Assembly: GCA_963714275.1 (NCBI GenBank)
Contig: CAVQNT010000003.1
Span: 64,001-128,000, forward strand
Direction of reading: 5' to 3'
From: Candidatus Bathyarchaeota archaeon
GTDB taxonomy: Archaea; Thermoproteota; Bathyarchaeia; Bathyarchaeales; DTEX01
DNA length: 64,000 nt
The notes beneath the pieces are model-generated. The model did not search any database. It had not been told where the DNA came from and saw only the letters and a program-made list of their open reading frames with translations. Position 1 is the first letter of the stretch. Every line of letters starts with the position of its first letter. A program made the translations under genes and the position numbers. This document shows, one piece after another, positions 11,293-53,959 of this stretch.

Positions 11293-11375
11293 ATATGTAT
11301 GTGGGAGAGCGAGAGTAAGAACGTAAACAAATTTCAGAGAGAGAAAAAGATTAAAAATTAATTCCCAAACTTAAA
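11293..11375 (-). repeat. Dispersed intergenic element, copy A
   Basis: Minus strand reads GTTTGGGAATTAATTTTTAATC then a CT-rich arm. Confidence 0.65.
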
Positions 11376-11579
11376 CTAACTATCTACCAAGGGCGCGTAT
11401 TAAATAATATGAAAGTAATAAAAAACAAGGGACCTTAAATCATGTGCGTTTCTTTTTCTGTTTTGATGAGGTATAAATAAAGAAATTTATGAAAACAAGT
11501 CTAAGGAACAATTCTATCTAATGGCTTTTGGGTCAATGAAACAAATATTTTATTTAGTGATTAAAGGAAATATGTTTTC

Positions 11580-12509
11580 ATGAAGTATGGACTGTTGATT
11601 AGAAGATATTCTTATCGAGAGATACTTGACCAAGCTCTTCTTGCAGAAAAATATGGTTTTGATTCGGTGCACATTGATGACCACTTTTACAGTTTTGAAC
11701 CGGATAGTAAACAACCCTATTTTGATGCGCTTGTTGTGATGTCAGCCATTGCAGTGGAAACTTCGCGTGTAAAGTTGGGATATAGTGTGCTATGTAACTC
11801 ATACAGAAATCCCGCGTTACTAGCCAAAATGATAACTTCGATAGACCACATATCTCAAGGTCGTGCTCTTTTATGGATTGGAGCAGGATGGCGCCAAGAA
11901 GAATACAAAGCCTACGGCTATCCTTTTCCCACTGCTAAAGAACGTGTTGACCAATACGAAGAAGCAATAACAATTTTTAAGAAACTCTTTACCGAAGAAG
12001 TTACGAATTTTGAAGGGAAATTTTGGAGATTAGAGAAATGCATAAATTTCCCTAAACCCGTCCAGAAGCCCTATCCTCAAATTATTGTTGGTTCTCAAGG
12101 TAATCGAATGCAGACTATTGCGTGCCGAGAGGCTGATGGGATAAACATGTTTGAAAAAGAAGAAGAAGCTCTCAAAGAAAGTGTAAGATTCATCAACAAG
12201 AAATTGAAGAAATTTGGTAGAGATCCATCAAAGTTTGAAATCTCATTACAAAACTCTGTTACTCTGGTTAAAAACGAAGACGAAAAAGACAAAATAGTCG
12301 ATGAAATCCTCAAACAGACTAAAGACGAAAAATTAACAAAGGAAAAAATATTGGAAAACCGACTCATTGGAACTACGGATGAAGTAAGGGGAAGAATGCG
12401 AACCTTAGAGCAAATAGGAGTGAAAAAACTAGTGACACATGTTAGGGGAAGCCCGTCAATCAAAGACCCTCTAAAACTTTTTTACAAAGAAATAATGACT
12501 AATCATTAA
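11580..12509 (+). CDS. LLM-class flavin/F420-dependent oxidoreductase
   Basis: GFDSVHIDDHF, YRNPALLAKMITSIDHISQGR, GAGW, PKPVQKPYP. Confidence 0.92.
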   Translation: MKYGLLIRRYSYREILDQALLAEKYGFDSVHIDDHFYSFEPDSKQPYFDALVVMSAIAVETSRVKLGYSVLCNSYRNPALLAKMITSIDHISQGRALLWIGAGWRQEEYKAYGYPFPTAKERVDQYEEAITIFKKLFTEEVTNFEGKFWRLEKCINFPKPVQKPYPQIIVGSQGNRMQTIACREADGINMFEKEEEALKESVRFINKKLKKFGRDPSKFEISLQNSVTLVKNEDEKDKIVDEILKQTKDEKLTKEKILENRLIGTTDEVRGRMRTLEQIGVKKLVTHVRGSPSIKDPLKLFYKEIMTNH

Positions 12510-12595
12510 ACAAAGTTAAAACAAATTTTTAAAAGCTCAGCTAGTCATCCATCTCAGACACTCAGTTAGTCACTGATATTTCTACGTAAAGAATA

Positions 12596-12648
12596 TTTTT
12601 GGGTTTGGGGATTAAATTTTAATGCATACACACATTTTACGATTGAAT
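12596..12648 (+). repeat. Dispersed element copy B; left arm of a 38-bp inverted repeat (12611-12648)
   Basis: TTTTTGGGTTTGGGG-ATTAAATTTTAAT-GCATACACACATTTTACGATTGAAT. Confidence 0.8.
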
Positions 12649-12878
12649 ATTTAAGCGAAGAAGAAAAAGACGAGTTAAAGTCTATAACGGCTTAATGTAC
12701 CATTACGAAGTTTCACCCTTACTTGATCCTGAAACGATACAGCCAATAATTTTCTCAAAAAAGGAAATTCGCGGAATTGTAAACGAATATTTCAACCTTA
12801 TGAAAAAGTATCATCAGCCAGTTTTCGAGGTCCCATTTTACTTTCTGAAACATCAACAATTGTGTCTAATGTGAGTTA

Positions 12879-13718
12879 TTAGGGTTTCAGTCCCGCCAAT
12901 ATCGCCTGAAAAATGTATTTCGCAGTAGGTCGGTTTTGATAGAGCACCCTCTTCACAAGTCCCACTTGGAGGAATTTCTTCCTAAGCACTGGGCTTGCTC
13001 GCATTAGTTTAAGCAGAACTTTCGTAATTTTGAAGAGATTTTTCCAACCTCCCACATTTTTAATCTTTTCATGAAAATTCGGTTCAGAAAATTGTTCAGC
13101 TACATGAACGTGCTCAAACCCCGCTTGTGTCAACCATTCGACATAGTCAGTAATCAAGGGAATGTGAAATTTATATCCCAATACGGCGGAATATATTTGT
13201 TCTGCTGCTAGAATTTTTGCATCCGCTCTAGCATTTACCTTCGGATCTTTCATGAGTTCCGCCAATGCAATTTGTCCACCAGATTTTAATGCCGAAAAAA
13301 AACCCTCAAATGCACTCTGTTGCAGGAAAAACGCCATAAATTCAGTAATAACCACATCAAAAGTATTGGGTGGAAAGGATAATGCATGTGCATCCCCTAT
13401 TTGGAAATGTAATTTTTCATGGGCTGGCGACTTTGATGCAAGGGTATTGGCAGTGCGTATCGATTCTGGCGATATGTCAATTCCATACACCATTGCTCCT
13501 GTAGTCTCTGCCAAGTGCACGGAAGTACCACCCGCCCCACACCCAACTATTAATACCGTACTGGAATCTGTAATTCGGGCTAATTTGGCGATGAGTTCAA
13601 TCGGTTTATTCCCTTGAGAGTTAAATGATAGCAGCCCCAATTTACTGATTATTTCATACCAAGAAAGACCTTCAAGGTTCTTTGACGTGGCTGCCAAAAA
13701 TTTATCGATCTCTAACAT
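12879..13718 (-). CDS. Class I SAM-dependent methyltransferase
   Basis: VLIVGCGAGGT, GIDIS, GDAHALSFPPNTFDVV. Probable start at ATG 13718 with GAGGT upstream; the ORF track extends to 13766. Confidence 0.88.
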   Translation of the reverse strand: MLEIDKFLAATSKNLEGLSWYEIISKLGLLSFNSQGNKPIELIAKLARITDSSTVLIVGCGAGGTSVHLAETTGAMVYGIDISPESIRTANTLASKSPAHEKLHFQIGDAHALSFPPNTFDVVITEFMAFFLQQSAFEGFFSALKSGGQIALAELMKDPKVNARADAKILAAEQIYSAVLGYKFHIPLITDYVEWLTQAGFEHVHVAEQFSEPNFHEKIKNVGGWKNLFKITKVLLKLMRASPVLRKKFLQVGLVKRVLYQNRPTAKYIFQAILAGLKP

Positions 13719-13836
13719 GCCCAATACCTCAATATCGTGGAAAATGATAACAATGTATTGAAACATTGATTTTTCCCTTAATAATGGTCACTACCTCCCT
13801 TTCAATTTCTAGCTATCAACATGCATTACAATCGAC

Positions 13837-13874
13837 ATTCAATCGTAAAATGTGTGTGTGCATTAAATTTTAAT
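13837..13874 (-). repeat. Dispersed element copy C; right arm of the 38-bp inverted repeat
   Basis: Reverse complement ATTAAAATTTAATGCACACACACATTTTACGATTGAAT matches 12611-12648 at 36/38. Confidence 0.8.
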
Positions 13875-14929
13875 TAAAACTTGCCGTATTTCCACGCTTC
13901 ATCATACATGGCGATGATGTTTTTCACTGATGTAACGGGCTGGATGTTGTGACAAGGAGCTAAGATGTATCCTGTTTTGTCGCTGGCAAGTGCATTAATG
14001 CAGTGCCTGACCTCCGTACGCACCTCCTCCGACGTCCCAAATGGTAGAACTCGCTGATTGTCCACGCCACCGTGAAAACAGAAACTTGCACCAAACTCCT
14101 TTTTCAAGCCTTCGAGGTCCATTCCTGGGCAGGTCCACTGCAGCGGGTTCAAGATGTCTATGCCCATCTCTATGATGTCTGGTATGAAGAGGCGGATGGC
14201 GCCGTCATCGTGGTGGAATACCTTGATCCCGAAGCTGTGCGCCAGGTCGATGAACCTTTGCATGATCGGTCTGTAGAACTCGCGGAAGACTTTCAAGCTG
14301 ATCATAGGTCCTGCCTGGGTGCCAAAGTCGTCTGTCACTTGGGTGACATCGATCAGTCCGTCACATGCCTCAAACATGCGCCGATGCTGTTCATACAAGA
14401 AATTGGCTATTTCCTCCAGCAGTCGACGCGTGAACTCAGGGCGGACAAACGGATCGACCAGAGACGTCTTCAGACCACGAAGCTTGTTATGCTGGAAGAA
14501 AATCGCCATATAACCACACATGACAACCTGCTTTTCGCAACCGGCTTTGGCAGCTGCACGCATCTCCGAGTAATTAAACCAGTCTGCCCTTGGCCATGTG
14601 TATTTCTCCAAATCCTCGATGGTACGGGCATCTGACAGAGGATTATGTGTCATCTCGTCGTATACGCCCATTGCGTAGCTGACCTTCTTTGTGCGGATTC
14701 CCCAATAGTCAATAGTCTCGTCTTCAGCGACCATGGGCAGCTTCGGACCAACATAATTAGGTTCGACACTTGCCATTCCGTCAATATGCAGCTTGGCACG
14801 GACATCTGCTTCCTTGCCGAAATATGCCTTCAGCCTACCCCACACCTCTGGTGTGGTCCAGATATCCGTGGGGATGTGATCCAGCCTTTCATGGTTGAAG
14901 GCTGCAAGCACTCGTTCCCTTGAGTTCAT
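13874..14929 (-). CDS. Uroporphyrinogen decarboxylase / MtaA-CmuA-like family protein
   Basis: MNSRERVLAAFNHE, DDFGTQ, HDDG, FHGGVDNQ, GYILAPCHNIQ. Confidence 0.9.
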   Translation of the reverse strand: MNSRERVLAAFNHERLDHIPTDIWTTPEVWGRLKAYFGKEADVRAKLHIDGMASVEPNYVGPKLPMVAEDETIDYWGIRTKKVSYAMGVYDEMTHNPLSDARTIEDLEKYTWPRADWFNYSEMRAAAKAGCEKQVVMCGYMAIFFQHNKLRGLKTSLVDPFVRPEFTRRLLEEIANFLYEQHRRMFEACDGLIDVTQVTDDFGTQAGPMISLKVFREFYRPIMQRFIDLAHSFGIKVFHHDDGAIRLFIPDIIEMGIDILNPLQWTCPGMDLEGLKKEFGASFCFHGGVDNQRVLPFGTSEEVRTEVRHCINALASDKTGYILAPCHNIQPVTSVKNIIAMYDEAWKYGKF

Positions 14930-37095: not shown

Positions 37096-37184
37096 AGAAC
37101 TTCTAATTCATTTTTCTAGAATTTTCTTTCATATATTTTTTGAGATACAAGAGAAGAACAATCAAAAGAAGGATTTGAATCGGA

Positions 37185-39995: not shown

Positions 39996-41679
39996 ATGAC
40001 GCAGTCATCAACAACCAAGCCTTCATTTCTTTCAGTGCAACCTGTCTCAAGGAAGGTTGGGCTTTATGAAAAATTCGAGCTTCGAATCGACTTGAACGCA
40101 ACATATGCCAATCCTTTCAATCCTGAAGAGATTGACTTACAAGCTGAGTTCACATCCCCCACTGGCAAAGAATGGAAGATATGGGGCTTCTATAACCATT
40201 CAAGCTGGTCTCATCTTTGGATGGTTCGTTTCGCGCCGACGGAGAAAGGGGTCTGGAAATATATCGTGAAAGTAAAAGACATAGAGGGCACAGCTCAAAG
40301 CCAAGCTGACACCTTCGAGGTGATTGACTCGTTGCATCATGGTTTCATCAGGATCTCGCCGAATAAGCGCTATCTGATGTATGATGATGGCACATCCTTC
40401 TATGGTGTTGGACTATGGTACAACGATGGTTATGACCTGTTCAACGAGGGACACATTACAGCAGATGGACTTGATGAGCTTAAACGTCGAGGTGCTAATT
40501 TCATCAGCTTCTTTCACACGCCTCTTGAGACTATGGGCACCGGTTTGGGTCGTTATGACCAGAATCGGTGTGGTCGACTTGACCAACTCTTTGAATGGTG
40601 TGAGAAGCGTAATATCCACATATCCTGGAACATGTGGTTTCACTCGCATCTTTCCCAGGCTGTTTGGGGTCCTGGTGGAGCACTATACAGACACAATCCC
40701 TTTCATCTTGTAGCTGATGCTGTTGACTTCTTCGGTAGTAAAGAAGCCTGGAAGTTTCAAGAAAAAATCTGCCGTTACATAATCGCTCGTTGGGGGTATA
40801 GCCATGCATTGTTCCTATGGTTCATCATCGATGAAATTAATGGCACCGAAGGATGGCAGGATGGCGATAAAGATGTCGCCGAAAAGTGGTGTAGAAAGAT
40901 GGACGCCTTTTTCAATGAGCATGATCCCTACGGACGCCCTACCACAGGCACCCAAAGTGGGGGCATCGACGAATGGTGGCCAGGTGGATACAAAATCTTC
41001 GATATTGCAGCTCGCGAAATATATGAAGCGCAGGGACATCCTATGCCAAAGACAGGTAAAATCGACTGTGCCATTGAAAGCCCACTGCAATATAGCCTAT
41101 CGCAACTACTCTACCCAGATCCATAATCTGTGGAAAGGCTTCAACAAACCCGCCATTATCGGTGAGTGTGGCTGGGACCATACATATTATGAACCGGGAA
41201 CGCCAGGATATCTGGCAATGTATCACAATGCCTTATGGGTCAGCCTGACAAATGGTTTATGCTGTACACCATTCTGGTGGGCTTACTCAGATTGGATCAA
41301 CGATAGTGTTGTTACCAATCAAATGCACCACTTAGCAAACTTCGTTTCAGACATCGATTTCGCTCACCATAACCTTAAACCCGCTGAGATCAAGGCAGGT
41401 GACTGCGATGCATGGTGTATGAAGAACGACAAAATTATCTTCGGCTGGGTTGTTAATCCGCGTACCAGTGTTGCCAAAGAATCCTTCACGATCTCGGGGT
41501 TAAAAGATGGGAACTATGAAGTACATATCTATCACACATGGCGAGGTCAATACTTGAATGCGAACACACTTCAGTGTCAAGATGGAAAGCTCACCATCAT
41601 GATTCCAGAATTACAGAGAAGCCAGGACCACGCTTCACACATCGGAAATGACATCGCTTTCAAAATCGTTAGAAAATAA
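39996..41679 (+). CDS. DUF5060-domain clan GH-A glycoside hydrolase; frameshift ~41096
   Basis: NPFNPEE, WMVRFAP..GVW, YIIARWGYS, IDEI, KPAIIGECG. Confidence 0.78.
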
Positions 41680-41814
41680 TACCTAAAAAACACATGGAAT
41701 CGCCTTTTCACCTATTCTTCGCTAGCTGACTAATATATCAAAAATAGAAAACGAAAAAAAATAAAATGAATCTTCATCAGCATGCAGTTTGCTGATAACT
41801 AGCGTATACTGCGT

Positions 41815-41970
41815 CTAGTATCTTCTTCTACCAAAACTTGACCTTGGGGGTCTTCTCTTGGCAAAGCACTCTTGGCAGTATACTGGTCTTGTGCCGTCGG
41901 GTTTGAAGGGAACTTCGCATTCTTTACCACAATCGGCGCAAACTGCTTTGTGCATTTCACGACTTTCCAT
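41815..41970 (-). CDS. CxxC-x17-CxxC domain protein (51 aa, absent from the ORF track)
   Basis: MESREMHKAVCADCGKECEVPFKPDGTRPVYCQECFAKRRPPRSSFGRRRY. GGAGTGA upstream. Confidence 0.92.
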   Translation of the reverse strand: MESREMHKAVCADCGKECEVPFKPDGTRPVYCQECFAKRRPPRSSFGRRRY

Positions 41971-42502
41971 GCTCTTTTCACTCCTATGCATTTTGTCTGC
42001 AAGAATAAAGTCTAGTTCTAGAAGCTTTGCTTCCTGCGCAATCTCAGAGAGACGTTTCCCTCTCTATTAAACTTATCCATGACGAAGTTAGAAAACTTAA
42101 TATGGTTAGCTGAAAACTTACGAATTGTGGATACAATGGCAAGGAATTTTAGCTGAAGCTATCTAGCCATGCCAGCCAAACAGCACTTAAGACCGTTTTA
42201 AGCCTAATTCGCTTTCGCAGGCTAAGCTGACTTTTCTCCTTACTAGATCTAGAGTAAATTCTCTTATTCTTTAGACTCTTCGTTAACCAACTTTTCTGCT
42301 TCCATCTTTTAAGAGCCCTTTCCTTTCTTTTTCTTTCCTTTGCTACTTTCTTCATTTTTCTTTTCTCTTTTGTTTTTTTATATTTCTTAGTGGTTCTCGC
42401 TTGATTAAAATTTGTTCTCTTCCATCTATCCTAACAAACCTACTTAACTCTTTAGCATCCAAGATCATCATGAGAAGGAAAAATGTGGGATGCAATCTTC
42501 TG

Positions 42503-42612
42503 TGTGTTTTTTAGAGAGAGTGTATGTATGTGAGTGAATGAGAGAAGGAAAGCAAAAGCATATAAGTGAAATAGTGTGTGACGGGGATTAAATTTTAATC
42601 TTTTTCTTCTTC
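42503..42612 (+). repeat. Dispersed element copy F; direct repeat of 33827-33937
   Basis: Shares GTGAGTGAATGAGAGAAGGAAAGCAA..TATAAGTGAA..GGGGATTAAAWTTTAATCTTT. Confidence 0.85.
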
Positions 42613-43061
42613 GCTGAAAGTGAAAGAATTGACTGGAAGACAAGCCATTATACAACGCAATATCCAAAATGTTAAGTCAAAACTTTTTTCACAGATAATG
42701 CTACCGTAAGCCAATTTGGTGCCGGGCCTGTGGATACTAAGGCTCAATAAAAGATTCGCCGAAAAGGAAGCAGACTAGAACGCCTAGAATGTGTTAATTC
42801 TTCATAAATTGTTTAAGCGCTAAGAAACGATTTTAGGGCATATCTTAATCTAAGAAACGCGGAAAATCATCGAGTTGTTCAGAAAAAAAAGACGCAAAGA
42901 CGAGATAGATCTAGCTGCCGAAACAGTGTTTCAGATTTTGAAGACTGGAGCAAAAAATGTAGAGAAACAGAAGGGAAAAAACCATTGAGGAACCTCAATG
43001 GGAGAAGCATGAATCCGAAGAAATCACTAAAGAAAAAACAACTATACTACCTTCAAATGAA

Positions 43062-43505
43062 GTGTTAAAGTTTCTTAATCCAATTGATAGAGATCTTGAA
43101 GAGATCGAGAATACTCTAGTAAAGATCCATCCCAAAATTGAATCGATCTCTAAGCTTCTACCAACACTGGACCCGTTGAAGGAACTACTACAACATAATA
43201 TTGCAGAAAATATAAAGGAACTGAAGAAAAAGACTGCTTTTTTACTAGAGCTAAAAAAACAAGAGGAAGATAAAAATCAAGAGCTTCAAAAAATGCAGCA
43301 GATTAAGGAAAATCTGGAAAAAGAGATAAATCAGATGGAAGATGCATTGGTACAAGTACGCAATAAGATACCCGAGATTACTGCCGAAAAAGAAAGAATC
43401 GAGGGCGATGTAACCCAGCGAGAAGAAAATCTTCGTTTGGTTGAAGAACACATTAGACGTATTCTAAATCTTCAGAAAGCCAGCTCAACGCCCCCCACTC
43501 ACTGA
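43062..43505 (+). CDS. Coiled-coil hypothetical protein (true start probably further upstream)
   Basis: E/K/Q-rich heptads. Frame stays open upstream of the GTG. Confidence 0.6.
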   Translation: MLKFLNPIDRDLEEIENTLVKIHPKIESISKLLPTLDPLKELLQHNIAENIKELKKKTAFLLELKKQEEDKNQELQKMQQIKENLEKEINQMEDALVQVRNKIPEITAEKERIEGDVTQREENLRLVEEHIRRILNLQKASSTPPTH

Positions 43506-43601
43506 AGCCAGCTAATGTCACTGCAGTGACCTGAAACTCGTATTTTTCTTTAAATACTTAACATATTTTGGAATTCGGTTTCTGTTTGTATAACATGCGC
43601 T

Positions 43602-44252
43602 CTAAGTATTGAAGAACAAGTAACTGAGGTATCGATGGTACTTTTTTATTCTCGGAAAAAACATAGGCACTTTTTCAGCATAGTCCTGATATTCTTTCCC
43701 AAACTCCTTTGTTAACTCGTTCTCTTCTTTCTTTGAAATGAGAAAAATTAACAGAATCATCAATGGAGTGGAAAGTAGAGAGTACCACGCAGAAAATAAA
43801 AAAGTGATTCCCACATGAGCTAGTAAACCTCCAAGATATTGCGGATGCCTAACTAAAGAATAAACACCCGAGGTAACGATTTTGTCCGCTCGATGGGTTT
43901 CAGCCACTTTTAAAGTGGTTCCTTTTACACCTGCAACTCCGAACCAAGCACCTGACAAAAACAAAGGAACAAAGACTATCAAGTGAACTATTGGAATCGA
44001 ATAGTTGATAAACGGAAAAACCACAGACAAATTTAAGAGGAGGGAGATAACAAACCTTGGTTGCGGAGAAACCCAGAGTCCAGCCCAAAAGACGAAGAAC
44101 CCCCAACCAGAAAGGAAACTGTAAATCCCGCCAATTTGTCTCCCTCTGTCTTGCCCATATTTCTCTTCAAGTTTAAGATGCTCCACTGATAAAAAATGAA
44201 GTGGTATCACAGCAATTATGCCAACCACGCAAATGAAGAAGAAAATGTACAT
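43602..44252 (-). CDS. Isoprenylcysteine carboxyl methyltransferase (ICMT/Ste14/PEMT) family membrane protein
   Basis: TSGVYSLVRHPQYLG, EENELTKEFGKEYQDY..VPMFFP. Confidence 0.9.
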   Translation of the reverse strand: MYIFFFICVVGIIAVIPLHFLSVEHLKLEEKYGQDRGRQIGGIYSFLSGWGFFVFWAGLWVSPQPRFVISLLLNLSVVFPFINYSIPIVHLIVFVPLFLSGAWFGVAGVKGTTLKVAETHRADKIVTSGVYSLVRHPQYLGGLLAHVGITFLFSAWYSLLSTPLMILLIFLISKKEENELTKEFGKEYQDYAEKVPMFFPRIKKYHRYLSYLFFNT

Positions 44253-44323
44253 TCTGCTATCATAGAATCAATAAAGGCTAACGAAATAAATCATTTCTTA
44301 TGGATACGTTGCCGACACAGGCG

Positions 44324-45265
44324 TCACTGCGTATTCCATTCTTGCTTTCTTCCGCAATTCGGACAGTATAAAGCATCTCCAGGCATCCTTTGTCCACAGC
44401 AGATACAGAATTTCAGCTGCCATTTCTGAATCTGAACACGCCTTCTTTGAAGAACGGTTTGAACGAAAAGACCGATTGCTACGAATGTACAGATTCCTAA
44501 CATGACCTCTCTGAGAAATATGCCGGTCTCTACCGAAATGGCTACTGTGAGGAAGCCTGTGGCATCATACACACCGTGAATCAGCGTAGGTATTAGAAGA
44601 TTTCCGCCTGAAAGATAATACGTCACCGCCATAGCCATTCCAAAGGCAACCAGATTAGTGAACAAGACCAAAGAAGCTACACCGTAAACGAGTCCGTAAT
44701 AGAGATGCACAGCAGCGAAAAGCACCGACGAAGCAAACGCAAGAACCAACCAGTGACGATTCTTAAAAATTGCCAACATACCGCCAAAAACGAAACCTCT
44801 AAAAAGATACTCTTCAACTGGCCCTACAACTAAAAAGGACACTAATACCATGGTCCAAGCTGCCTCAGGCGGTATCTGCAGCAACGGATTGGGTCTGTTC
44901 AGAAGATCAATTGCCGCTGGATCAAGCGCTAAAAAAGCGATTAGAATTACAACCGTAACGATTATAGCTAAATCCATGAAAACTCCGAACATGCCTAACC
45001 CAAACTTGAGAGCGGAAAAAACGTGGTTGTTGGCACGTCGAATTATGGACTTTCCCCAAAGCAAGCTTACGGTTATAACGGGTATTCCATAAACCACGAT
45101 TATCTGCGCGATGGCGCCAAGATCCCCGATAATATACTGGGAGAAAATTGAGAAGCAAATGACAATTAGCCCGATAAGATATGACCATTTTGTAATCGGC
45201 TTTTCCAAGGTTTCGTTCTTTCTCAAAACAGAACCGTCTTTTGCTAGCATTAGTCCAATTCTCAC
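44324..45265 (-). CDS. CPBP (Abi/Rce1-like) intramembrane glutamic protease with C-terminal zinc ribbon
   Basis: EEYLFRG, FAAVH, HGVYD motifs. C-terminal CICCG...YCPNCG. Confidence 0.9.
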   Translation of the reverse strand: MRIGLMLAKDGSVLRKNETLEKPITKWSYLIGLIVICFSIFSQYIIGDLGAIAQIIVVYGIPVITVSLLWGKSIIRRANNHVFSALKFGLGMFGVFMDLAIIVTVVILIAFLALDPAAIDLLNRPNPLLQIPPEAAWTMVLVSFLVVGPVEEYLFRGFVFGGMLAIFKNRHWLVLAFASSVLFAAVHLYYGLVYGVASLVLFTNLVAFGMAMAVTYYLSGGNLLIPTLIHGVYDATGFLTVAISVETGIFLREVMLGICTFVAIGLFVQTVLQRRRVQIQKWQLKFCICCGQRMPGDALYCPNCGRKQEWNTQ

Positions 45266-45475
45266 ATCAATGTTTTGACTGGTAAACTGTCGAAAAGGCT
45301 TACACTTCCCATCATATAATCCTTAGCTATACAAGGCATAATCTATGAAGTGAACACAAATAGCAAAGTCCAAGATCTGTCTGTGATATAGGAAAATCAA
45401 GGTTTATTATTGATGTTATTCGACGAATGTAGAAATCACTGTCATCTGAGCAGTGTATAATTTGTTATTCCTATA

Positions 45476-45590
45476 TTTTGGACAAAATTTAATTTTTTTC
45501 TCTGTTTATTCTTCTCACGTGTGTTGTGTGTTGTGCGTTATCTGTTATACGCTCTCTAGCCACGATATAGAACAACAAAACAACCATTCT
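45476..45590 (+). repeat. Dispersed element copy G (degenerate)
   Basis: TTTTGGACAAAATTTAAT, T/C-rich stretch, (GTGTT)n, then AACAACAAAACAACC. Confidence 0.5.
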
Positions 45591-45707
45591 AAAATTTATT
45601 ACTTGCCATTCTTTTTCTTTTTATTTTCAAGCATCTTTTAATACGGTTAAAAAAAATTATAAGGTTCAACATGCACTAGACCAAACTCTAGACATATCTG
45701 GAGTGTT

Positions 45708-47189
45708 CTAGCCGGGCTTGCTACGTCTTCTCATTACGAAAAGCCCTACAATGACAGCAACAGCAGCAGCTGCTGCTCCAATTATCACGTACATTATTGG
45801 GAAGCCTTCTTCCAGTGGAGTCAGCGTGACAGTCGGGTCGAGGTGCACTGTTTCAATACTTGGAATTATTGTCGCAACATACTCTAGTCCTTGGTATTCA
45901 GGTTCATTGGACCAAAAATTAATTTGAAGTATGATGTTGTGGTCAGATCGTACCGTATGGGTTCCTGGTTGAGTGAATAAGTAATACGAATCGACCTGAA
46001 CCGTTTGAGTGAGACCATCGATTGTTAATTGGGTTTCCTCCTTTGCGAAGAAGTATGCCTCAACAAATGCTTCAGTGGGCAGATGAATCATGGTATCTTG
46101 GTTTGGTTGAATGCCGATAAACATAACTCCATTAGCATACCCCGTGTAAATTCCTCCTAAGGAGGAACGTGTTATTTCGATACTTCCGTTATGAATAAAC
46201 GTTAATGTGATTGGTTTGTCGCTCTGCACAGCAATGGCGTATGCTGTTGGCTGGACTGCAACGCCAGTTCCTCCTGTTACTGTAAACTTAGTCATCAATT
46301 GCTTGGTTTCAAGATCATACACTCTCACTTCAGTATCCTCAGAAGCTAATATTCGGTATCCGTAATCCCTTTGGTTGTCCCACCCCCATTCCCCCCTCAA
46401 CGACCTTGTTAAGAAGAATGTTCCCACAAAACCTCCTTCAGCAGAGGGAACGGGAAAACATGTACAATCACCACCTCCTACAGCTGGAATTGCGACTGAC
46501 TGAATCATAATATTGCCTGTAGACTCAAATTTAAAGACCCTAAAAGGACTCAATATTATATTTTTATACGAGTTGGCATCAAGAGGATATTGTTGTTCAT
46601 CCCCGTCATCTCTAGTCACAGTAACCCTTGTTTTTTCTAAAGCCAGCATTGTGTATTCAGCGTTGATTCCTTGGCTAGAACCCATCAAAACGAATTCCTT
46701 GCCAACATACATGCCATCTGTAGACAAATAGGAGCCACGTGGTAATGGTCCCTCTCTAGCAGTAGCATTAGGAATACTATGATAATTAAGAAGCAAAACA
46801 GAAACCTGCTTATCTGATACTACCTTGAAGACTGTGCCATTGGAAAGTAACACAAAATGTTTCTTCATGCTATTTATTGTTACTTCCGAAACAAGTCTAT
46901 CAAGCGTCAGGTCATAGACCATTACGTTTGTGTCGTCCTCTGCAACGCTAATCGCAATCAAGGAGGTATTACCAACTGAGCCTGTGTCAAGCCTCCAAAC
47001 TGAGTTACGATCGTTCGTATCAGTAAGATTAAATCTGTATATTTTAGATGGCACAACACCATAGTAAGTATAATCCGGGTTTCCTAATGATGGAAAGACA
47101 TGGAGATAAAATGGGTATATGAGGAAAATTGTGAGTATAGTCACAACCAAATAAAATAATTTAATTTGTAAGCCTTTCCAGAACTGCAA
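45708..47189 (-). CDS. Membrane-anchored surface protein (IgGFc-binding-like), paralog of 2-969
   Basis: N-terminal TM, repeated AxEDTxVxV and SDKxxxV/L motifs, C-terminal EGFP + TM + RRRSK. Confidence 0.75.
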   Translation of the reverse strand: MQFWKGLQIKLFYLVVTILTIFLIYPFYLHVFPSLGNPDYTYYGVVPSKIYRFNLTDTNDRNSVWRLDTGSVGNTSLIAISVAEDDTNVMVYDLTLDRLVSEVTINSMKKHFVLLSNGTVFKVVSDKQVSVLLLNYHSIPNATAREGPLPRGSYLSTDGMYVGKEFVLMGSSQGINAEYTMLALEKTRVTVTRDDGDEQQYPLDANSYKNIILSPFRVFKFESTGNIMIQSVAIPAVGGGDCTCFPVPSAEGGFVGTFFLTRSLRGEWGWDNQRDYGYRILASEDTEVRVYDLETKQLMTKFTVTGGTGVAVQPTAYAIAVQSDKPITLTFIHNGSIEITRSSLGGIYTGYANGVMFIGIQPNQDTMIHLPTEAFVEAYFFAKEETQLTIDGLTQTVQVDSYYLFTQPGTHTVRSDHNIILQINFWSNEPEYQGLEYVATIIPSIETVHLDPTVTLTPLEEGFPIMYVIIGAAAAAVAVIVGLFVMRRRSKPG

Positions 47190-47535
47190 AATTATACGCT
47201 CCTAAATATCCGAACATTATATATATTAATTTATGTTATATTTAATTATAATGTCTGTAACAATCACGAGGTTTTTCCATGAAGCTTCTATTAGAGTCCA
47301 ATCAAAAAATAACCTAGAATAAGCGGTACAGTCTTAAAAGTCACAGACTAATGAAGGCTTTTTGGTAATAACACTAAATGTTGTCGGTTACGGCTTCTAA
47401 TAGTGCTAAGAAGATAGGTGAGATGACTATTCAAGCGTTTAAAGACTTCTTCGCTGGTAGAAAAGTCAGGAATAACATCAATTTAACTGAATTTGGCATA
47501 GCTTAGATGCGAGAATCATTCAAGATCGTATAAGC

Positions 47536-48072
47536 TTAAAAAGAGAACTTCTTGCCAAACTCTTCTAGGTAAGCTATTTTTTCAAGTTTCTTTCTCGGTC
47601 TTATTAAGTGAACCACCTTAGCTGAAATGTCCAGTTTCTCTTTTGGGTAGCCCAAAGCTAAAAGCGCAATAACCTTCAGGTGACTGGGTAGTTTTAACAT
47701 TTCTCTAATTTCTTTTTCGTTGAAAACGCCTATCCAACATGTTCCTATTCCTTCGCCAGTGGCAGCGAGTACAAGGTTTTCCATTGCAATGCATGTTTCA
47801 CAGGCATACCAGCGTGGAGAAGCTTTCTGATCTCCGCATCCAACAATAACAACGGGCGAATCAGCTAAAAAATGACCATATCTGCATCCCTTAGCGATTT
47901 TTTTTCTTTTATCTGAATCTGTGACTATGATAAAACGCCAAGGCTGAACACTTCCTGCTGAAGGAGCCAGTCTAGCCGCATCTAAAATCTTTTTCAACTT
48001 TGCATGTGGAACCGGCGTAGACTCATAAGACCTAATTGATCTCCGGTTTTGAATAACTTCAAAAACATCCAA
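47536..48072 (-). CDS. Nitroreductase family protein
   Basis: RRSIRSY, APSAGSVQPW, GIGTCWIG, LGYP. Confidence 0.93.
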   Translation of the reverse strand: MDVFEVIQNRRSIRSYESTPVPHAKLKKILDAARLAPSAGSVQPWRFIIVTDSDKRKKIAKGCRYGHFLADSPVVIVGCGDQKASPRWYACETCIAMENLVLAATGEGIGTCWIGVFNEKEIREMLKLPSHLKVIALLALGYPKEKLDISAKVVHLIRPRKKLEKIAYLEEFGKKFSF

Positions 48073-48236
48073 CTTAATTCCCTCGATTATTCAGTGAGTT
48101 TGTAACTATTTGAAATCACCATCGACTCCCTATTTAAAAAATTTTATTAGCTCAGCTCACTGTAAATTAATCTTAAAACTTTTAATGCAAAGATACCAAT
48201 ATAATGGCAAACTGCTTAAGAAAAAGTTGACCAATC

Positions 48237-49482
48237 TTGAATAGACCTGATGTTTACTACATTGAGGCACATGTACCAATTGAATATATTCCACAGGTCC
48301 CCTCCAAAAAATGGTACACATACAGCCTGATATATCAAACAAAAGAGCTTGCAGGAAAAATTTTGTTAGATACTATTAAACCGGGAGACACTGTTGCCAT
48401 TAAAACACATTTTGGTGAACGATACTCTCAATATTACATTAGACCAGCCTATGTAAGGAAGGTAGCTGATAAAATTAGGGAATTAGGTGGAAAACCCTTC
48501 GTGTGTGACACGCTTTTTTCTGGTATGGCTGTAGAGAGAGATGAAGCAGACGAACCCTTCCTGACCAGGAGATCTCTTGAAGAGGGTCTAGAAACTGCAG
48601 CTATGAATGGTTTCACCCGTGAAACTATGGGGTGTCCAGTCTTCTTTGCAGATGCTCCAAAGGGATTAAGATCAATAAAACATCCCTTTAATGGGACATA
48701 CATCAAAGAGGTTTTTATCGCTTCAGTTATCGCTGAGGCTGATGTCCTATTGAGCCTGGCGCATTTTAAGGCTCATGACTGTATGTCAGTGGGCGGAACT
48801 CTCAAGAATATCGGTGTGGGTTGCTCAGCTAAACAGGGAAAATGGTGGATTCACCACAGTTCTAAGCTTAAGTGTGGACTTGAAAAAATGCACAGAATGC
48901 GGCGAATGCGTATCTTATTGCCCAGTGGACGCAATAGAGATGGTTCAGGGAAAAGCCCATATTATTCCAGAGAAATGTATCGACTGCGCTGGCTGCATCG
49001 ACCATTGTAAATCTGCTGCATTTATTAGTAGGACATTTCCAACCATAGAGGAACAAGAGGCTAGAATCGCTGAAACTGCTACTGGCATCATTCAGTATTT
49101 TAAAGGTAAAGTAGCATTCATCAACTTAGCTGTTGACATTGTGCCCCTTTGCGACTGCGATCCCTTCCAAGGAGTTCCAATAGTTCCAGACCTAGGCGTA
49201 CTAGCATCAAAAGACCCAGTGGCTATCGATAGGGCATGCATAGACCTTGTAAACAACTCCTCAGGCATCCCTAACTCAATGGCTGAGGCTGCAGGTGTGC
49301 TGAAGCCTGGAGTAGAAAAACTTAACACCATCGCTAAAATGAGGTGGAAGGCTACGCCTGGAGCAACTCATGTGACACCGGACTGGAGGGTCATGCTTGA
49401 TACAGCTGAGAAGGTTGGACTTGGAACTCAACATTACAATTTAATTAAAATAAATTTTGGCTATCCTCCAAAGAAATCATGA
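48237..49482 (+). CDS. DUF362 protein with 2x[4Fe-4S] domain; frameshift ~48868
   Basis: VAIKTHFGE, HFKAH, GGTLKNIGVGC, CTECGECVSYCP / CIDCAGCIDHC, CDC..DLGVLASKDPVAID. Confidence 0.88.
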
Positions 49483-49628
49483 AATGTCTCAAGGTTACGG
49501 AAAACATTTTAACTAAAAGTGATCCAGGCCATTAAATTAATAAGATTTTTATAATTGGCGCCTTTTTGAGTGTATAAAAATCATCGTTTGGTGGAATTGA
49601 ACTGAGCAAAGTATATTTCCTTAAGGCA

Positions 49629-50537
49629 TTGAGATCCCGATATGACCAATCGGAAAGCTTAGTAAATAAGCTTCCTGAGCTGTTGGAAAAATCGGGAATA
49701 AATGATATTATTGCCAAAAAAAACTTGGTCGCCATTAAGATGCACATAGGTGTCATCGGTGGATATAGAACCATTCGACCTCAATTCGTAAGGAAAATGG
49801 TAGACACAATTAAACAATGCGGGGGAAGTCCATTTATAACTGACACTTGGGGGATAGGGCACATAGAGGCTGCATTCTACAATGGATACAGTTACGCAAC
49901 GGTTAATGCACCAGTACTACCAGCAAACGGAATCAAGGAGAACGATTACAGAATAGTAAAGTTAGACGATGGATTCCACTTGAAGGAGGTTAAAGTTGCA
50001 GGAAACATTTACGACGCCGATGTTCTCATCAACTTTGCACATGGCAAGGGGCATGGATCATGTGGTTATGCTGGTGCCATAAAAAATTTAGCTTTAGGTG
50101 GCACAACAGGAGATATAAGAAGTAAAGAACATGCTTTAGAAAGAACAGAGGAAGGCGCCAGAAAATTCCAAGAAGCCATGGTGGATGTCAATAAGGCGGT
50201 TCTAAGCAACAAGAAAGACAAGGCTTTACATATTGCATGGCTATTCGACATCGTTGAACACTGCGATTGCACCCCCTTTGGAATGGTTCCTTTCCTTCCC
50301 GATTTGGGCATACTTGCCTCAAAAGACATAGTAGCCTTAGAGAAGGCTAGCATAGATCTTATAAACAAAGCTCCTCCATTACCATGGTCAATTGCAGATA
50401 AATTTAACATTGAAGCTGGAGACAACAAGTTCCTAAAAATCCACGGCAAAGATCCTTACATCCAAGTCTACGCTGCTGAAAAGGCGGGTTTAGGCACAAC
50501 CCAGTATGAGATCATTGAGTCTGTAAAAGGCTTATGA
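49629..50537 (+). CDS. DUF362 protein without the ferredoxin insert
   Basis: VAIKMHIG, HGKGH, GAIKNLALG, CDC..DLGILASKD. Start may lie a few codons upstream. Confidence 0.85.
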   Translation: MRSRYDQSESLVNKLPELLEKSGINDIIAKKNLVAIKMHIGVIGGYRTIRPQFVRKMVDTIKQCGGSPFITDTWGIGHIEAAFYNGYSYATVNAPVLPANGIKENDYRIVKLDDGFHLKEVKVAGNIYDADVLINFAHGKGHGSCGYAGAIKNLALGGTTGDIRSKEHALERTEEGARKFQEAMVDVNKAVLSNKKDKALHIAWLFDIVEHCDCTPFGMVPFLPDLGILASKDIVALEKASIDLINKAPPLPWSIADKFNIEAGDNKFLKIHGKDPYIQVYAAEKAGLGTTQYEIIESVKGL

Positions 50538-51477
50538 AATACGAAACTTCTTCTATTGATATAGGGGGATTAAGGTTGAACCCTTTGGTTCTATGTTTGG
50601 ACATAAGTGAAAGTATGACCTACGGTGAACCATGGAAGATTAACCAAGCATTCACCATGATAGTAAAGACCATACAGAGCTTGAGCCAAGACAAACAGGT
50701 AGGATTGGTCACCTTCGACGTAACATCTGAAGTTTTGCTGGATCTGCAGCCATTAAACAAAGAAACAATTACTACCGAACTTAGTAAAATAGTGCCCAGA
50801 GGAGTCAGCTGCATAACGGCTGGATTGGCTGAGGCTGTCAACCTAATTAAAAAAAACGATAAGTTTGGTGAAGTTCTCCTATTAACTGATGGTCGAGTAA
50901 ACTTATCCAAGAATCAGATGGAAGGATTTGAAGGCAGCATAGACTTAGAGAAGGAACTCCTAAAGATATCAAGGGATGCTGCGCAAGAACAAATCACGGT
51001 TCATTCAGTCGCTGTCGGTGAAGACGCCTTTTCGGGAACTTTGTCCAATATTGCTAAAACAACTCGTGGCTGTTACTGGCTGGCAGAAGATTACCCTGGA
51101 CTTAGCATAGGAACATCATGGCCTTCGAGAGTTTTAGAGAGGTATGAGCTAAGTGTTCACAGTTCTCCAGTTGAGTGCCTTCAGCTCAGCCTACCTGGAC
51201 AAAAGAATCCCAGTTTATGCATGTTGCGGTTGTCTCTCAAAGCTTTTATGATATCTATTTAGGACACCATAAAGCGTTTCTAATTAACGCAGGCAAAGAG
51301 AGAGAAGCAAGAACTGCTTTGATCTCCATCGATTCTGATAAGCTGGCTGGTTACAGAGAGAGAAATCCTAAGATAGCGGAGAGGGTCAAAACTGGAAAAG
51401 CTGCACTTCTCGACAAAAGCTACCGTGACTATCTAAACTTGAGTAAAGGTAGTCTCATTGAACTTAATATTTACTAA
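50534..51477 (+). CDS. von Willebrand A domain protein with small C-terminal domain; frameshift ~51175
   Basis: MIDAS motif LDISESM, LLTDG. Overlaps the upstream stop (ATGA). Confidence 0.8.
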
Positions 51478-51496
51478 AAGCCCACCAGTAGTCAGC

Positions 51497-51540
51497 CAAT
51501 AAAATTTAATTTTCTCTCTCTTCTTCTCGCGCGCGCACTC
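51497..51540 (+). repeat. Dispersed element copy H (short)
   Basis: AATAAAATTTAAT-TTTCTCTCTCTTCTTCT-CGCGCGCGC. Confidence 0.5.
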
Positions 51541-51711
51541 GGAATTTCCGTTCATAGAGAAAAGCCTAGAGAAGTTTCTAGAGAATTTTATTTTAGGGAA
51601 GAAAAGGCTGAAGCTAAGACTTGTAAGTTTGAATGGATAGAGGTTAAGGGTCGCCCTCAGATGCGTTACCGTGACCTTAAGACGGGTCGTTTCATAAGAA
51701 AGCCTGAATAA
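51541..51711 (+). pseudogene. Start-less coding remnant
   Basis: Open frame ...KFEWIEVKGRPQMRYRDLKTGRFIRKPE* beginning directly at element H. Confidence 0.35.
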
Positions 51712-51770
51712 TGAATTCCAAAAAGGAATTTATTTGAAGATCTTAATAAAAATTTATAGCTAACTAGCTT

Positions 51771-52343
51771 CTATGTTGTTAATGGAGTAAAGTTTTTTTC
51801 ATGCATTAATATTTTGGATATTTTTATTTCAGCAAAAAATTCTCTTTTCGCTTTGCATATTGGGCAAATGTACGGCGGCTCTTCGCGGAAAACCACGTAA
51901 CCGCACTGTTTACAGTACCAGAATTTGAGTTTCGAACTTGAAATCCCTTTGTTCAATATGCCAAGTGTATCAATTGGTTTTTCAGTAACTGCCATGTTTA
52001 TTCCATGATCTCTGGATTGTTTTTCAATAGGTCGACGTTCAGGGATAGGCATTATGGGAGTTTTGTCTTCAAAGACATCTTTTCTGACGTAAAGTGCGCA
52101 ATAGCAGTATCCGAACTCAAGAACATCGATATCGCGGTAGTCGCAGGGACACATTATGTCTCTGTCAAACTCAAACTTTCCAGAGGCAAGCCTGCATGGG
52201 CATGAAGGATAACCATAACGTTCTTCATTTTTTTTAAGTCCTTCGAGAAGGTCTGCTAGAAATTCAGAGTCAGGGTTCAGGAAATAGCCATGGGTTTTTG
52301 CATCGCTTTCTGCCCTTCGCCGCACTTTTTCAAATTCTGTCAA
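51771..52343 (-). CDS. Ferredoxin:thioredoxin reductase catalytic subunit fused to a rubredoxin-like domain
   Basis: CPCR, CPC, CYC (FTR cluster/disulfide motifs) plus WYCKQCGY..PPYICPIC. Confidence 0.9.
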   Translation of the reverse strand: MTEFEKVRRRAESDAKTHGYFLNPDSEFLADLLEGLKKNEERYGYPSCPCRLASGKFEFDRDIMCPCDYRDIDVLEFGYCYCALYVRKDVFEDKTPIMPIPERRPIEKQSRDHGINMAVTEKPIDTLGILNKGISSSKLKFWYCKQCGYVVFREEPPYICPICKAKREFFAEIKISKILMHEKNFTPLTT

Positions 52344-52624
52344 ATTTCTAAAACCTCTCTTAGCCTATCTTCATAGAAACCATTCATTAAATTCTTATTA
52401 TCAATGATTATGACGGGATAGCTAGGCCTTCCACCCTTATTTCGAATGTCTTTCTCAATTTTTTCCCAATCTTCATTACTACATAAATCTACATCTATGT
52501 ACTCATATTCAAAGTTACTTTTTTTAAGGAATTTCTTTAACATTTTGCACCATGCGCACGTACTCAACGTGTACAATAGAATCTTATGTTTTTGGTTTCT
52601 GCCTGAAACTTTTATGGTATTCAT
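52340..52624 (-). CDS. Glutaredoxin/NrdH-like redoxin
   Basis: LSTCAWC, SYPVIII, GF. Overlaps the FTR start. Confidence 0.9.
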   Translation of the reverse strand: MNTIKVSGRNQKHKILLYTLSTCAWCKMLKKFLKKSNFEYEYIDVDLCSNEDWEKIEKDIRNKGGRPSYPVIIIDNKNLMNGFYEDRLREVLEI

Positions 52625-52821
52625 CTTTTAAACAGACTCTTTCCACAAGCTGGCAATGCCGCATATATTTCTTTCTTCAATACATTAAGACATACAAGAT
52701 GTTCTAATATATTGGTCCTTATAGAGAAGACGTTAAATTGGTTTTTAACACCTCTTAGGGAATTCTCAGACTTTGAAGAGTAAAATTTCTAACTTATAGT
52801 TCATTGCTATTGCACTTTGGA

Positions 52822-52965
52822 TTTTGGGATTAAAAATTAGTCTTTTTCTTCTTCTTACTTACTCTTACTTACATACTCTTCCGCTTCTGTTTACTCGGTA
52901 TATCGTGTGTATCGTATATCACACAAAAAAACAAACACAAACAACCAAAAACAAAAAGCTGACAA
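52822..52965 (+). repeat. Dispersed element copy I
   Basis: TTTTGGGATTAAAAATTAGTC, (CTT)n/(CTTA)n, TATATC repeats, (CAAA)n, AGCTGAC. Confidence 0.6.
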
Positions 52966-53366
52966 AAAATACTTAGAAGAGTAGGGAATAAATAAGAATT
53001 TAAAAAAATATGTAAATTTCTATTGGATAGCTCATCCTATTTATAGAGATATATATAGGAAAGACACTGTGCCATATTTCTTTATGTTAAAAAGTTTGAA
53101 GAACAAGAAATTTGTTAAACTAAAAAATAACAAAAACAAGCGGTGATAATAGGATTTGAGTAAACTTGCTTTCATCATTTTCTTTCCGCTTTTTCTTTAT
53201 TTCAGACTAGTCTTCTGGTTAGCTAGTAGAATGTGAACGAGTAAACCCTAATGACACAAGTTTCGTGTCTTTTTAACATGTTTTGTGATGCTTCTTCCAC
53301 ACATGAGTGTATGAGCATGAAACATAGAATAAATAAAAGTTATTAGACTAATAATATGTGTTTTAG

Positions 53367-53672
53367 GTGGCGACAGTCATGGTTACATGTACGAAATGTG
53401 GCGTAAAAAATGAAGATGAAGCAAAGTTCTGCATCAACTGTGGAGCTAATTTGCATGGTGGGGAAAGAAGATATGAAAGAAGCAGAGACGAATGCTTTGG
53501 GCTTCCTAATAGTGGCGCAATTGTGGGCATAGTTTTTGGATTACTAATCATTTTCTGGGGGCTATCAACGTTCTTCAATTTGGAAATTAATATTATGGCG
53601 ATCCTAGTGATCATTTTTGGTATACTCATTGTAGCAGGTGCCATCTATAGATTGATTCGAAGAAAGGTATAG
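53367..53672 (+). CDS. Zinc-ribbon + two-TM protein
   Basis: CTKCG..AKFCINCG followed by two hydrophobic helices. Confidence 0.8.
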   Translation: MATVMVTCTKCGVKNEDEAKFCINCGANLHGGERRYERSRDECFGLPNSGAIVGIVFGLLIIFWGLSTFFNLEINIMAILVIIFGILIVAGAIYRLIRRKV

Positions 53673-53959
53673 ATTTTTAGTTTGGGTTTGGGGACAAGCA
53701 TTCGCTGATACCATTCCATAGTTCAATCAACAGACTCGACTATGAAAGTCGCATACATCCCCCTTTTTGGCAACTAATTTTACTTTTCTGACATTTCAAT
53801 GAAAGCCTATATGAAAAAAACGTAATGAGAAAAGTCCATTTCAGAAGCCACAAACGAAAAACTCGCAAAAGTCATCAGTCGACTAGCAATACTAGCTCAG
53901 ACTAAAATCTACTGCCATGGCGTAACCCTTCACTCAGAAAAAATGGTTAAATCTGTTTT

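Follow-up and report, generated by a model that had tools for sequence, protein, structure and literature searches.

What is a short palindrome, repeated between genes and flanked by low-complexity arms, doing in the genome of a Bathyarchaeia archaeon? The question was raised by a 64-kb stretch of Candidatus Bathyarchaeota DNA, hereafter the window, which corresponds to C3:64001-128000 of a 10-contig, 2.64-Mb genome (G000) that is 91% complete; site coordinates given without a contig name are window positions. The proteasome alpha subunit encoded by this genome is 87% identical to its nearest named relatives, which belong to Candidatus Bathyarchaeota/Bathyarchaeia. An earlier inspection by a model, made without database searches (the sequence-only reading), had described about ten such elements here and had suggested recombination sites of an unrecognised cassette system, non-autonomous elements, scars of slippage-like DNA synthesis or structured RNAs. 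The elements were followed up in G000, in 30 relatives (31 genomes in all; G002 and G004 are of the same genus and G010 of another), and in contigs, not reads, of four independent sediment or wetland metagenome runs (X1-X4) aligned to 33001-53000. On balance, the elements are probably junctions at which a non-integron gene-cassette system of Bathyarchaeia recombines.

The recurring unit is ATTAAAWTTTAAT, a 13-bp A/T palindrome made up of two 6-bp half sites around one central A or T. At ≤1 mismatch it has 90 sites on nine of the ten contigs, 39 of them exact and 51 differing at one base, and among the 64 possible A/T-only 13-nt palindromes it was the commonest, the runner-up having 10 copies and the median being 1. 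The reversed genome, which served as a control, gave 0 exact, 12 one-mismatch and 160 two-mismatch matches compared with 39, 51 and 208 in the real genome; the number of copies above background can accordingly be put at about 120. Within the window there were seven matches at ≤1 mismatch compared with 0.51 expected, a count reached in none of 100 shuffles. The palindrome is therefore commoner than chance. Its central base is uninformative, since A and T were split 9 to 9 with respect to arm orientation. The sequence-only reading had also treated GGTTTGGGG as a fixed part of the core, and this did not hold. Exact matches in the window were present only at 12602, 53685 and, inside a gene, 22097; at ≤1 mismatch there were 21 matches compared with 11.7 expected, a count reached by one of 100 shuffles, so that the word is not clearly enriched by itself. 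This G-rich sequence is one of several simple-repeat flank types and not a constant core.

The arms that flank the palindrome have a pronounced strand bias. On the top strand the sequence to the left is G-rich and C-poor and the sequence to the right is C-rich and G-poor (in the adjacent 10 nt the left side has C at 0.07 and the right side G at 0.05), and the bias decays across 60-120 nt. Read outward, both arms open with a G-free simple repeat, namely (CCCAAA)n, (CT)n/(CTT)n, (CA)n, (CCA)n or (TCCT)n, with (CCAA)n starts also present among the metagenome copies; beyond it come other tandem blocks of 4-7-nt units, then an AAAC-rich stretch and often a palindrome of the AGCT or CTAG type. AAAC-type words were most frequent 60-100 nt from the palindrome, and the arm order that had been read from the window (C/T tract, microrepeats, AAAC-rich stretch, often a TAGCT-type motif) was upheld. 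The short-period tandem arrays of the window were concentrated in the arms, and the simple repeat beside the site varied in unit and copy number among copies and strains. Since 45 of the 61 intergenic (CCCAAA)n-type runs had a half palindrome directly 5', this repeat belongs to the element; (GC)n and (CTAG)n palindromes were abundant and mostly independent of it. A detector of G-less runs was dropped as unspecific (48+58 runs in the shuffled contig compared with 61+73 in the real one).

The two arms of an element were usually unlike, the commonest pairing being CCCAAA-type with CT-type (15 cases). An element's own left and right arms paired no better than swapped arms (minimum free energy of -22.3 compared with -23.8 kcal/mol, n = 37, Wilcoxon p = 0.13), which indicates that a hairpin, cruciform or RNA stem is not selected. 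The 64-kb window gave no Rfam 15 match at the gathering score, no tRNA and no tmRNA. The earlier suggestion of a structured non-coding RNA was accordingly abandoned.

Sequence similarity between copies was found to stop at the palindrome. The arms form homology groups, and one arm is joined with different partner arms at different sites. Among 99 in-register pairs of homologous arms, a count that includes related copies and hence pairs that are not independent, the homology ended within 5 nt of the palindrome in 35 and 6-30 nt past it in 29; the remainder comprised 25 long duplications or overlapping sites, five pairs that extended 30-200 nt beyond the palindrome and five that began inside the arm. 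Alignments ended within ±25 nt of the site in 43 of 101 cases at the palindrome, compared with 2 of 13 at random intergenic positions (375 sites). The same control gave 4/14 for (CTAG)n, 0/2 for (GC)n and 3/8 for AGCTSAGCT; these palindromes, which had been considered as additional junction types, were rejected because they gave no breakpoint signal.

Modules bounded in this way are mostly single genes of 0.5-2 kb, lie in either orientation and recur in different contexts, with homology stopping at the palindrome. One such module, of about 520 bp, is present at C2:300574-301102, C6:364728-365255 and C10:~14200-14683 (one end lost), and also in G004. Between contexts its similarity starts and stops at the flanking palindromes, and the C10 and C2 copies are 95% identical over 444 nt. 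The module-side half sites share a variant base in mirror symmetry (..TTTAAC / GTTAAA..) and the outer half sites are canonical, an arrangement that fits a central exchange between a module site and a target site. Since the flanking sites are inverted and not direct copies, target duplication is ruled out for this module. Another module, of 535 nt, recurs at three positions with 93-94% identity; it has the palindrome at one end and stops just short of AGCT-type palindromes at the other. Whole elements with both arms are sometimes duplicated, as at C4:99115 and C4:105160.

The 520-bp cassette sits inside a larger plasmid- or virus-like element, which is present in three copies (C2:299900-308200, C6:364000-370300 and C10:14000-22700) and carries a large protein judged ParB-like from reading the sequence, small winged-helix-like proteins and an integrase of the SSV type, which some of the copies have in split or broken form. 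Separately, an inverted duplication (C2:81000-87400 and C2:964600-971000, ~880 kb apart) that is 97.5-99.4% identical in views of about 1 kb contains several palindrome sites.

The sites are clustered as arrays inside low-GC, strain-variable islands. Sixty-three of the 90 sites fell in 13 islands, and 24 adjacent pairs were no more than 3 kb apart, compared with 10.6 ± 2.8 (maximum 18) in 500 random placements. The spacings ranged from 260 to 7898 bp and enclosed genes; 10 of the 44 spacings of ≤8 kb measured 515-1261 bp and enclosed one open reading frame (ORF). The statement that the copies lie only between genes was mostly correct, in that 81 of the 90 genome sites were intergenic and nine were not under a crude ORF call. 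Copies at changes in base composition were also seen as described: GC was 0.36-0.39 between the sites at 11350 and 13874 compared with 0.47-0.51 outside, and 0.34-0.39 over 34000-39999.

The window was also compared with the relatives. The genes at 11580-12509, 12879-13766 and 13874-14929 are neighbours in the window, and their homologs lie on three different G002 contigs (82, 88 and 91% identity). The G002 ortholog of the third, a URO-D-like gene, retains a palindrome overlapping its stop codon, with a different arm and a different gene beyond it: past a CCCCAAACCC arm come, in turn, (GGAC)n/(AGAC)n/(CAGT)n blocks, sequence rich in AAAC and the other gene, and homology with the window ends 8 nt past the palindrome. 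There was no palindrome within 1.5 kb of the G002 homolog of the second gene, a methyltransferase. Synteny around 44324-47189 was uninformative in G002 and G004, where the neighbours differ. The 30 relatives carry 0-6 exact palindromes compared with 39 here (six in G002, four in G010 and two each in G004, G016, G026 and G028), and the copies examined in G002, G004 and G010 had the same architecture.

Strain variation was assessed in the metagenome contigs, where uncovered parts were counted only if the four runs agreed and the flanks were covered. The segment 34335-36335, which follows the site at 33919, was hardly covered in any of the four runs, the depth over 34103-36335 being ~0-3, and both flanks were covered. 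A 1978-nt contig of X1 had 66 other letters in place of 45329-45689, which includes the half-site element, and joints in X3 and X4 skipped 51502/3-51768, starting inside the palindrome at 51498-51510. Element-bounded segments are therefore missing or replaced in other strains. Many metagenome contigs also diverged at 33904-33950; this is weak evidence because dispersed repeats break assemblies as well.

The 22-nt motif GGGTTTGGG(N)ATTAAAWTTTAAT was present in at least 120 metagenome contigs and had 0 matches among the viral contigs searched. Across 80 of these loci the arm past the palindrome was G-poor (G 0.09 and C 0.34 in the first 15 nt), and 10 of the 80 had 3-6 sites with a median spacing of ~790 bp. 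Genes without a Pfam family made up 7 of 10 in the array L044 and 3 of 10 in the array L112. A GYD-domain gene (Pfam) lies between sites in L044, and a similar small gene, recognised by eye, lies between sites in G000.

Taken as recombination junctions, the elements could have arisen as follows. Each half site and its adjoining 30-130-bp G-poor simple-repeat arm would belong to the DNA module on that side. A circular or otherwise free module with one site would recombine with a resident site, the crossover falling in or beside the centre of the palindrome, and insertion would leave two hybrid sites around the module and shuffle arms among copies. The arms themselves may assist synapsis as accessory sequences, or may be left behind by slippage-prone repair synthesis that starts at the site; the slippage-like synthesis put forward by the sequence-only reading fits their microsatellite make-up. 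The proposal in that reading of an unrecognised cassette system gained support from the breakpoints, the arm shuffling, the divergence in G002, the strain gaps and the cassette-like spacing. No enzyme for it was found among the classes searched, so that active capture or shuffling is something that we infer.

The genome was searched for such an enzyme. Fourteen Phage_integrase matches exceeded the cut-off, and tyrosine recombinases were the only recombinase class detected. There was no Phage_integrase match in the contig range of the window, in agreement with the earlier observation that it contains no integrase. Searches of the genome for Y1 transposase (PF01797), TnpB-type domain, DDE_Tnp_1, serine resolvase and ResT/TelK (PF16684) gave no match, and the 17 matches to the integron integrase model TIGR02249 were weak, the best scoring 44.3 bits compared with a cut-off of 265. 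Of the enzymes suggested earlier as possible partners, tyrosine recombinases are present with none linked to the sites, and Y1/HUH enzymes were not found. One gene, C5:16142-17386, encodes a 415-amino-acid tyrosine recombinase with a coiled-coil-like tail, the last seven codons and stop codon of which consist of a (GA)n/AAAAAG arm and an exact palindrome; what lies beyond this palindrome recurs beside another one at C2:391418. It was rejected as the enzyme of the sites, being a single case that is not repeated in its paralogs or in G010.

Several results weigh against recombination junctions. Among the enzyme classes searched in the genome no recombinase is tied to the sites, although the 91% completeness of the genome limits what such absences mean. 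Only one of 13 tyrosine-recombinase genes examined (of the 14 over the cut-off) abuts a palindrome, and the family of that gene (C5:16142-17386) was not found in G002 or G004, both of which have the elements. Integrase counts did not follow palindrome counts across the 31 genomes, G001, G013 and G024 having 9-12 integrases and 0 palindromes, and for known tyrosine recombinases 13 bp would be a short site. No module was seen in circular or excised form. A weak test of half-site inheritance, in pairs that are not independent, found the arm-side variant shared in 6 of 30 pairs and the far-side variant in 3 of 40, and one pair of 95%-identical arms differed in the arm-side half site. Homologous inward arms were present in only 3 of 94 adjacent site pairs; with these and the ~38-bp repeat around the methyltransferase gene of the window as the cases in favour, the idea that cassettes are generally flanked by homologous inverted arms was rejected. 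The junction model leaves the composition of the arms unexplained, and the intergenic calls depend on ORFs defined by a crude longest-ORF rule. Finally, gene 43602-44252(-) is absent from contigs of X1, X3 and X4 through an 830-bp skip (43493-44324) with no palindrome at its boundary, and a 3.4-kb insertion that distinguishes G002 from G000 does not end at palindromes; the palindrome sites are therefore not the sole route of gene-content change. At the position of the skip, X1 and X3 have 20 other letters with an AGCT-type motif.

Of the alternatives, a regulatory or insulating function survives best, although we consider it rather unlikely. The palindrome would be an operator for a dimeric DNA-binding protein, or a bidirectional transcription stop or start, with the arms as untranslated spacers; genes would travel with their regulatory flank, and the palindrome would mark the limit of conservation. 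A palindromic A/T site between genes suits a dimer. Lrp/AsnC-type factors, which are possible candidates, bind 13-bp palindromes with an A/T centre, and a stand-alone AsnC ligand-domain gene was found in one metagenome array. CCCAAA-type arms pointed toward gene ends in 27 cases and toward gene starts in 11, with no clear bias for CT-type arms (20 and 15, respectively), and CT-type arms that faced a gene start did so at a distance of 87-463 nt (median 229). Some arms have T-runs at their distal edge, and the G-poor outward strand cannot encode ATG, GTG or TTG starts or GGAGG. However, the element is found in all four types of intergenic region (gene orientations ++ 23, -- 24, +- 22, -+ 12), so that it is not consistently related to the direction of the genes. 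Palindromes lay at highly variable distances from gene starts (27-2730 nt), and gene ends were faced equally often. A core archaeal promoter (BRE/TATA) sits about 25-30 nt ahead of the transcript start and should therefore keep within a narrow range of the start codon. TATA-like words of this genome peak 40-50 nt upstream of start codons and are unlike the palindrome in sequence, and in the examples read a TATA-like motif and a ribosome-binding site belonging to the neighbouring gene stood between the arm and the start codon; the palindrome as an ordinary TATA box is thus not supported. An identity of 94-99% is lost abruptly at the site, which indicates a rearrangement breakpoint and not selective conservation, and 39 copies compared with 0-6 in close relatives would be odd for a core regulator. 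The element does not look like a simple promoter or terminator; it may have a regulatory or insulating function on the side.

A passive hot spot of recombination or slippage is a step less credible and is judged unlikely. The palindrome and microsatellites would stall replication or break, and joining by microhomology would shuffle the flanks with no dedicated enzyme. The arms are indeed chains of short tandem repeats that vary in unit and copy number, 13 identical bases together with simple repeats would provide microhomology, and the enzyme classes searched included no dedicated candidate. This explanation does not account for the fourfold excess of one palindrome over the next of the 64, for the exact 22-nt motif in at least 120 metagenome contigs and in the genus of G010, or for arms that are strictly polar to either side of the site. 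Other abundant palindromes and microsatellites in this genome are not breakpoints, and the variant half sites, with their mirror symmetry, are compatible with a precise exchange at the centre. Neither the regulatory nor the passive explanation accounts for nucleotide-sharp breakpoints together with conservation of the 13-mer across genera and habitats. A non-autonomous transposon resembling a MITE (a miniature transposable element with inverted repeats), or a small structured RNA gene, copied whole in either case, is highly improbable: the element is a small, non-coding, dispersed repeat with a lineage-specific expansion, a copy number that differs among relatives and some whole duplications, as in MITEs, but it has no terminal inverted repeats, no stem and no target duplication, its arms are unpaired and are exchanged between copies that are modular rather than co-copied as units, no Rfam match was found in the window, and no Y1, TnpB-type or DDE_Tnp_1 transposase was found in the genome, so that the MITE-like element proposed earlier was discarded.

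Recombination junctions of this type were compared with known systems, and the initial impression that the elements do not look like attC, REP, dif or CRISPR sequences was upheld for the features compared. Integrons are closest in logic. Both systems have arrays of mostly single-gene modules with a spacing of 0.5-2 kb and a recurring site, many cassette genes without a known family, strain-variable content and hybrid sites after recombination. The attC core is GTTRRRY. Here all 39 exact copies read ATTAAAW instead of a GTT core, and GTTAAA starts nine of the 51 one-mismatch copies. An attC site is a 55-140-nt imperfect inverted repeat that folds as single-stranded DNA, in contrast to the 13-bp A/T palindrome with unpaired arms; genes lie here in both orientations, apparently with their own promoters, and no integron integrase (IntI) exceeds the cut-off (44.3 compared with 265 bits).

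Repetitive extragenic palindromes (REPs) and bacterial interspersed mosaic elements share with the present element the form of short, multicopy, intergenic palindromes that are possible insertion targets and rearrangement boundaries. REPs are G+C-rich stem-loops of 20-40 nt that are associated with a RAYT (Y1) transposase, whereas the palindrome here is A/T-only, lacks the length for a stable hairpin, has strand-asymmetric microsatellites on its flanks and is unaccompanied by a PF01797 match. Telomere-resolvase sites, or fused hairpin telomeres, as in Borrelia (ResT) and phage N15 (TelN), are likewise palindromic junctions whose halves can come from two partners. By analogy, the G-rich strand of the present element, which runs 5' to 3' into the junction from both sides, resembles chromosome ends placed head to head, and (GGGTTT)n is telomere-like; however, PF16684 gave no match, the flanks are not mirror images and the ~90 copies are internal to the chromosome. 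CRISPR arrays consist of identical direct repeats set at even intervals of tens of bases, compared with a palindromic repeat at spacings of 260-7898 bp that enclose genes. Xer/dif sites are set apart by number and spread, there being one per replicon near the terminus compared with 90 sites on nine of ten contigs.

Integrons have been reported from archaea (Ghaly et al. 2022, Sci Adv, PMC9668308), and no description of the motif or of such elements in Bathyarchaeia was found in the literature, the supplementary attC tables of that paper lying outside the comparison. The evidence points to a gene-cassette shuffling system of a kind not previously described, and there is a real chance that it would prove categorically new once its enzyme and the origin of its arms are known. 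A bolder version, which we regard as possible but doubtful, is that of a cassette system widespread in Bathyarchaeia whose modules end in a half palindrome and a telomere-like polar arm and are joined head to head, the arms having grown by slippage-prone, strand-specific synthesis primed at the junction in a manner similar to telomere addition; the recombinase would be of a type not yet connected with cassettes, and gene capture would be independent of integrons.

Bathyarchaeia are among the most abundant archaea of sediments, yet little is understood of the ways in which they acquire and exchange accessory genes. If the elements are junctions, the 13-mer and its polar flanks would provide a handle for finding mobile cassettes in metagenomes, for surveying the accessory gene pool and for the search for the enzyme. 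The arms are chains of microsatellites with the G-rich strand always directed toward the junction, and an explanation of this arrangement could reveal a new DNA-synthesis or repair activity. In practice, short-read assemblies of genomes of this kind also break at the palindrome sites.

Within the window, seven of the 11 places listed in the sequence-only reading had the palindrome at ≤2 mismatches, one was a half site and three were degenerate or without a palindrome. The features are collected in the table.

Table. Palindrome elements, look-alikes and the variable segment of the window.
Position	Strand	Feature
11262-11390		Element 1: G-rich top-strand arm ending in (GA)n/AAAAAG, palindrome 11350-11362 (1 mismatch), short CCCAAA-type arm
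12597-12660	+	Element 2: GGGTTTGGGG, exact palindrome 12611-12623, (CA)n-type arm
13824-13874	-	Element 3: exact palindrome 13862-13874, (CA)n-type arm toward the methyltransferase gene
33838-34052		Element 4, longest of the copies: left arm C-poor (33838-33918), palindrome exact (33919-33931)
34103-36335		Variable segment beside element 4; genes 34103-34708, 34728-35267 and 35407-36243; low GC
35280-35318	-	Degenerate look-alike, flanked by convergent genes, with (GT)n, part of a palindrome and CCCAAACC; nothing matches within 2 mismatches
36975-37095	-	Doubtful member: (TTGT)n, (GACA)n, AGCT palindromes, CCCCAAAC run; no recognisable palindrome within 2 mismatches
42501-42612	+	Element with C-poor left arm (42501-42586), palindrome exact (42587-42599), followed by a short (CTT)n arm
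45476-45590	+	Half site (about 45484-45493) with G-poor/(GTGTGTT)n/AAAC-rich arm
51498-51545	+	Palindrome 51498-51510 (1 mismatch) with (CT)n/(CG)n arm
52819-52960	+	Palindrome 52829-52841 (2 mismatches), GGATTTTGGG flank, long G-poor arm with (CTT)n, TCTTAC repeats and AAAC-rich block
53680-53695	+	GGGTTTGGGG run without palindrome; arm remnant or chance

The left arm of element 1 is homologous to the arm C7_29288_L (81% over 79 nt), and that of the element at 42587 is 93% identical over 105 nt to an arm at C4:99115. Elements 2 and 3 form a ~38-bp inverted repeat, consisting of the palindrome and the (CA)n-type arm, that encloses the methyltransferase gene 12879-13766(-); the palindrome of element 3 overlaps the stop codon of the URO-D-like gene 13874-14929(-) by 1 nt. 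The right arm of element 4 is G-poor and made up of (CT)n, (GTTCT)n, (ACTCT)n and (ACAACAA)n blocks. An additional one-mismatch palindrome at 49433 has no arms and is probably due to chance. The genes beside the listed sites are of an ordinary accessory type. Several of their products lack a Pfam family; the others are a luciferase-like monooxygenase, an S-adenosylmethionine-dependent (SAM) methyltransferase, the URO-D-like protein, an esterase, a SIR2-like fragment and a pair consisting of ferredoxin-thioredoxin reductase and glutaredoxin.

Other self-complementary words were enriched over composition in the intergenic DNA of G000, namely GCGCGCGC (53-fold), AGCTAGCT (18-fold), GCTAGCTA (15-fold) and AGCTSAGC (13-14-fold); examples in the window lie at 12535-12545, 36920-36935 and 37045-37060. 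About 340 intergenic runs of the (CTAG)n type and about 96 of (GC)4+ were counted in this genome; they occur in all types of intergenic region and are not homology breakpoints, and (CTAG)n supplies stop codons in every frame.

Some further features of the window were recorded. The sequence 41731-42507, which directly adjoins the element at 42587, is multicopy: it is 86% identical to C6:474933-475679, recurs in part among the relatives and on C1, C2, C4 and C6, and reached a metagenome depth of 1346 (X3). Its minus strand contains a small CxxC...CxxC zinc-ribbon ORF and a lysine/glutamate-rich stretch. Gene 45708-47189(-) encodes a 493-amino-acid protein without a Pfam family that has at least eight further paralogs in G000 and many in the same-genus genomes. 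The ORFs 39996-41126 and 40804-41679 (+) overlap in different frames, the first having a DUF5060 domain, and may represent a frameshifted or fused gene. A lone (AGGT)6 tandem repeat is present at 36340-36364 in the long non-coding region 36244-36595, where the segment absent from the metagenome strains has its right edge.

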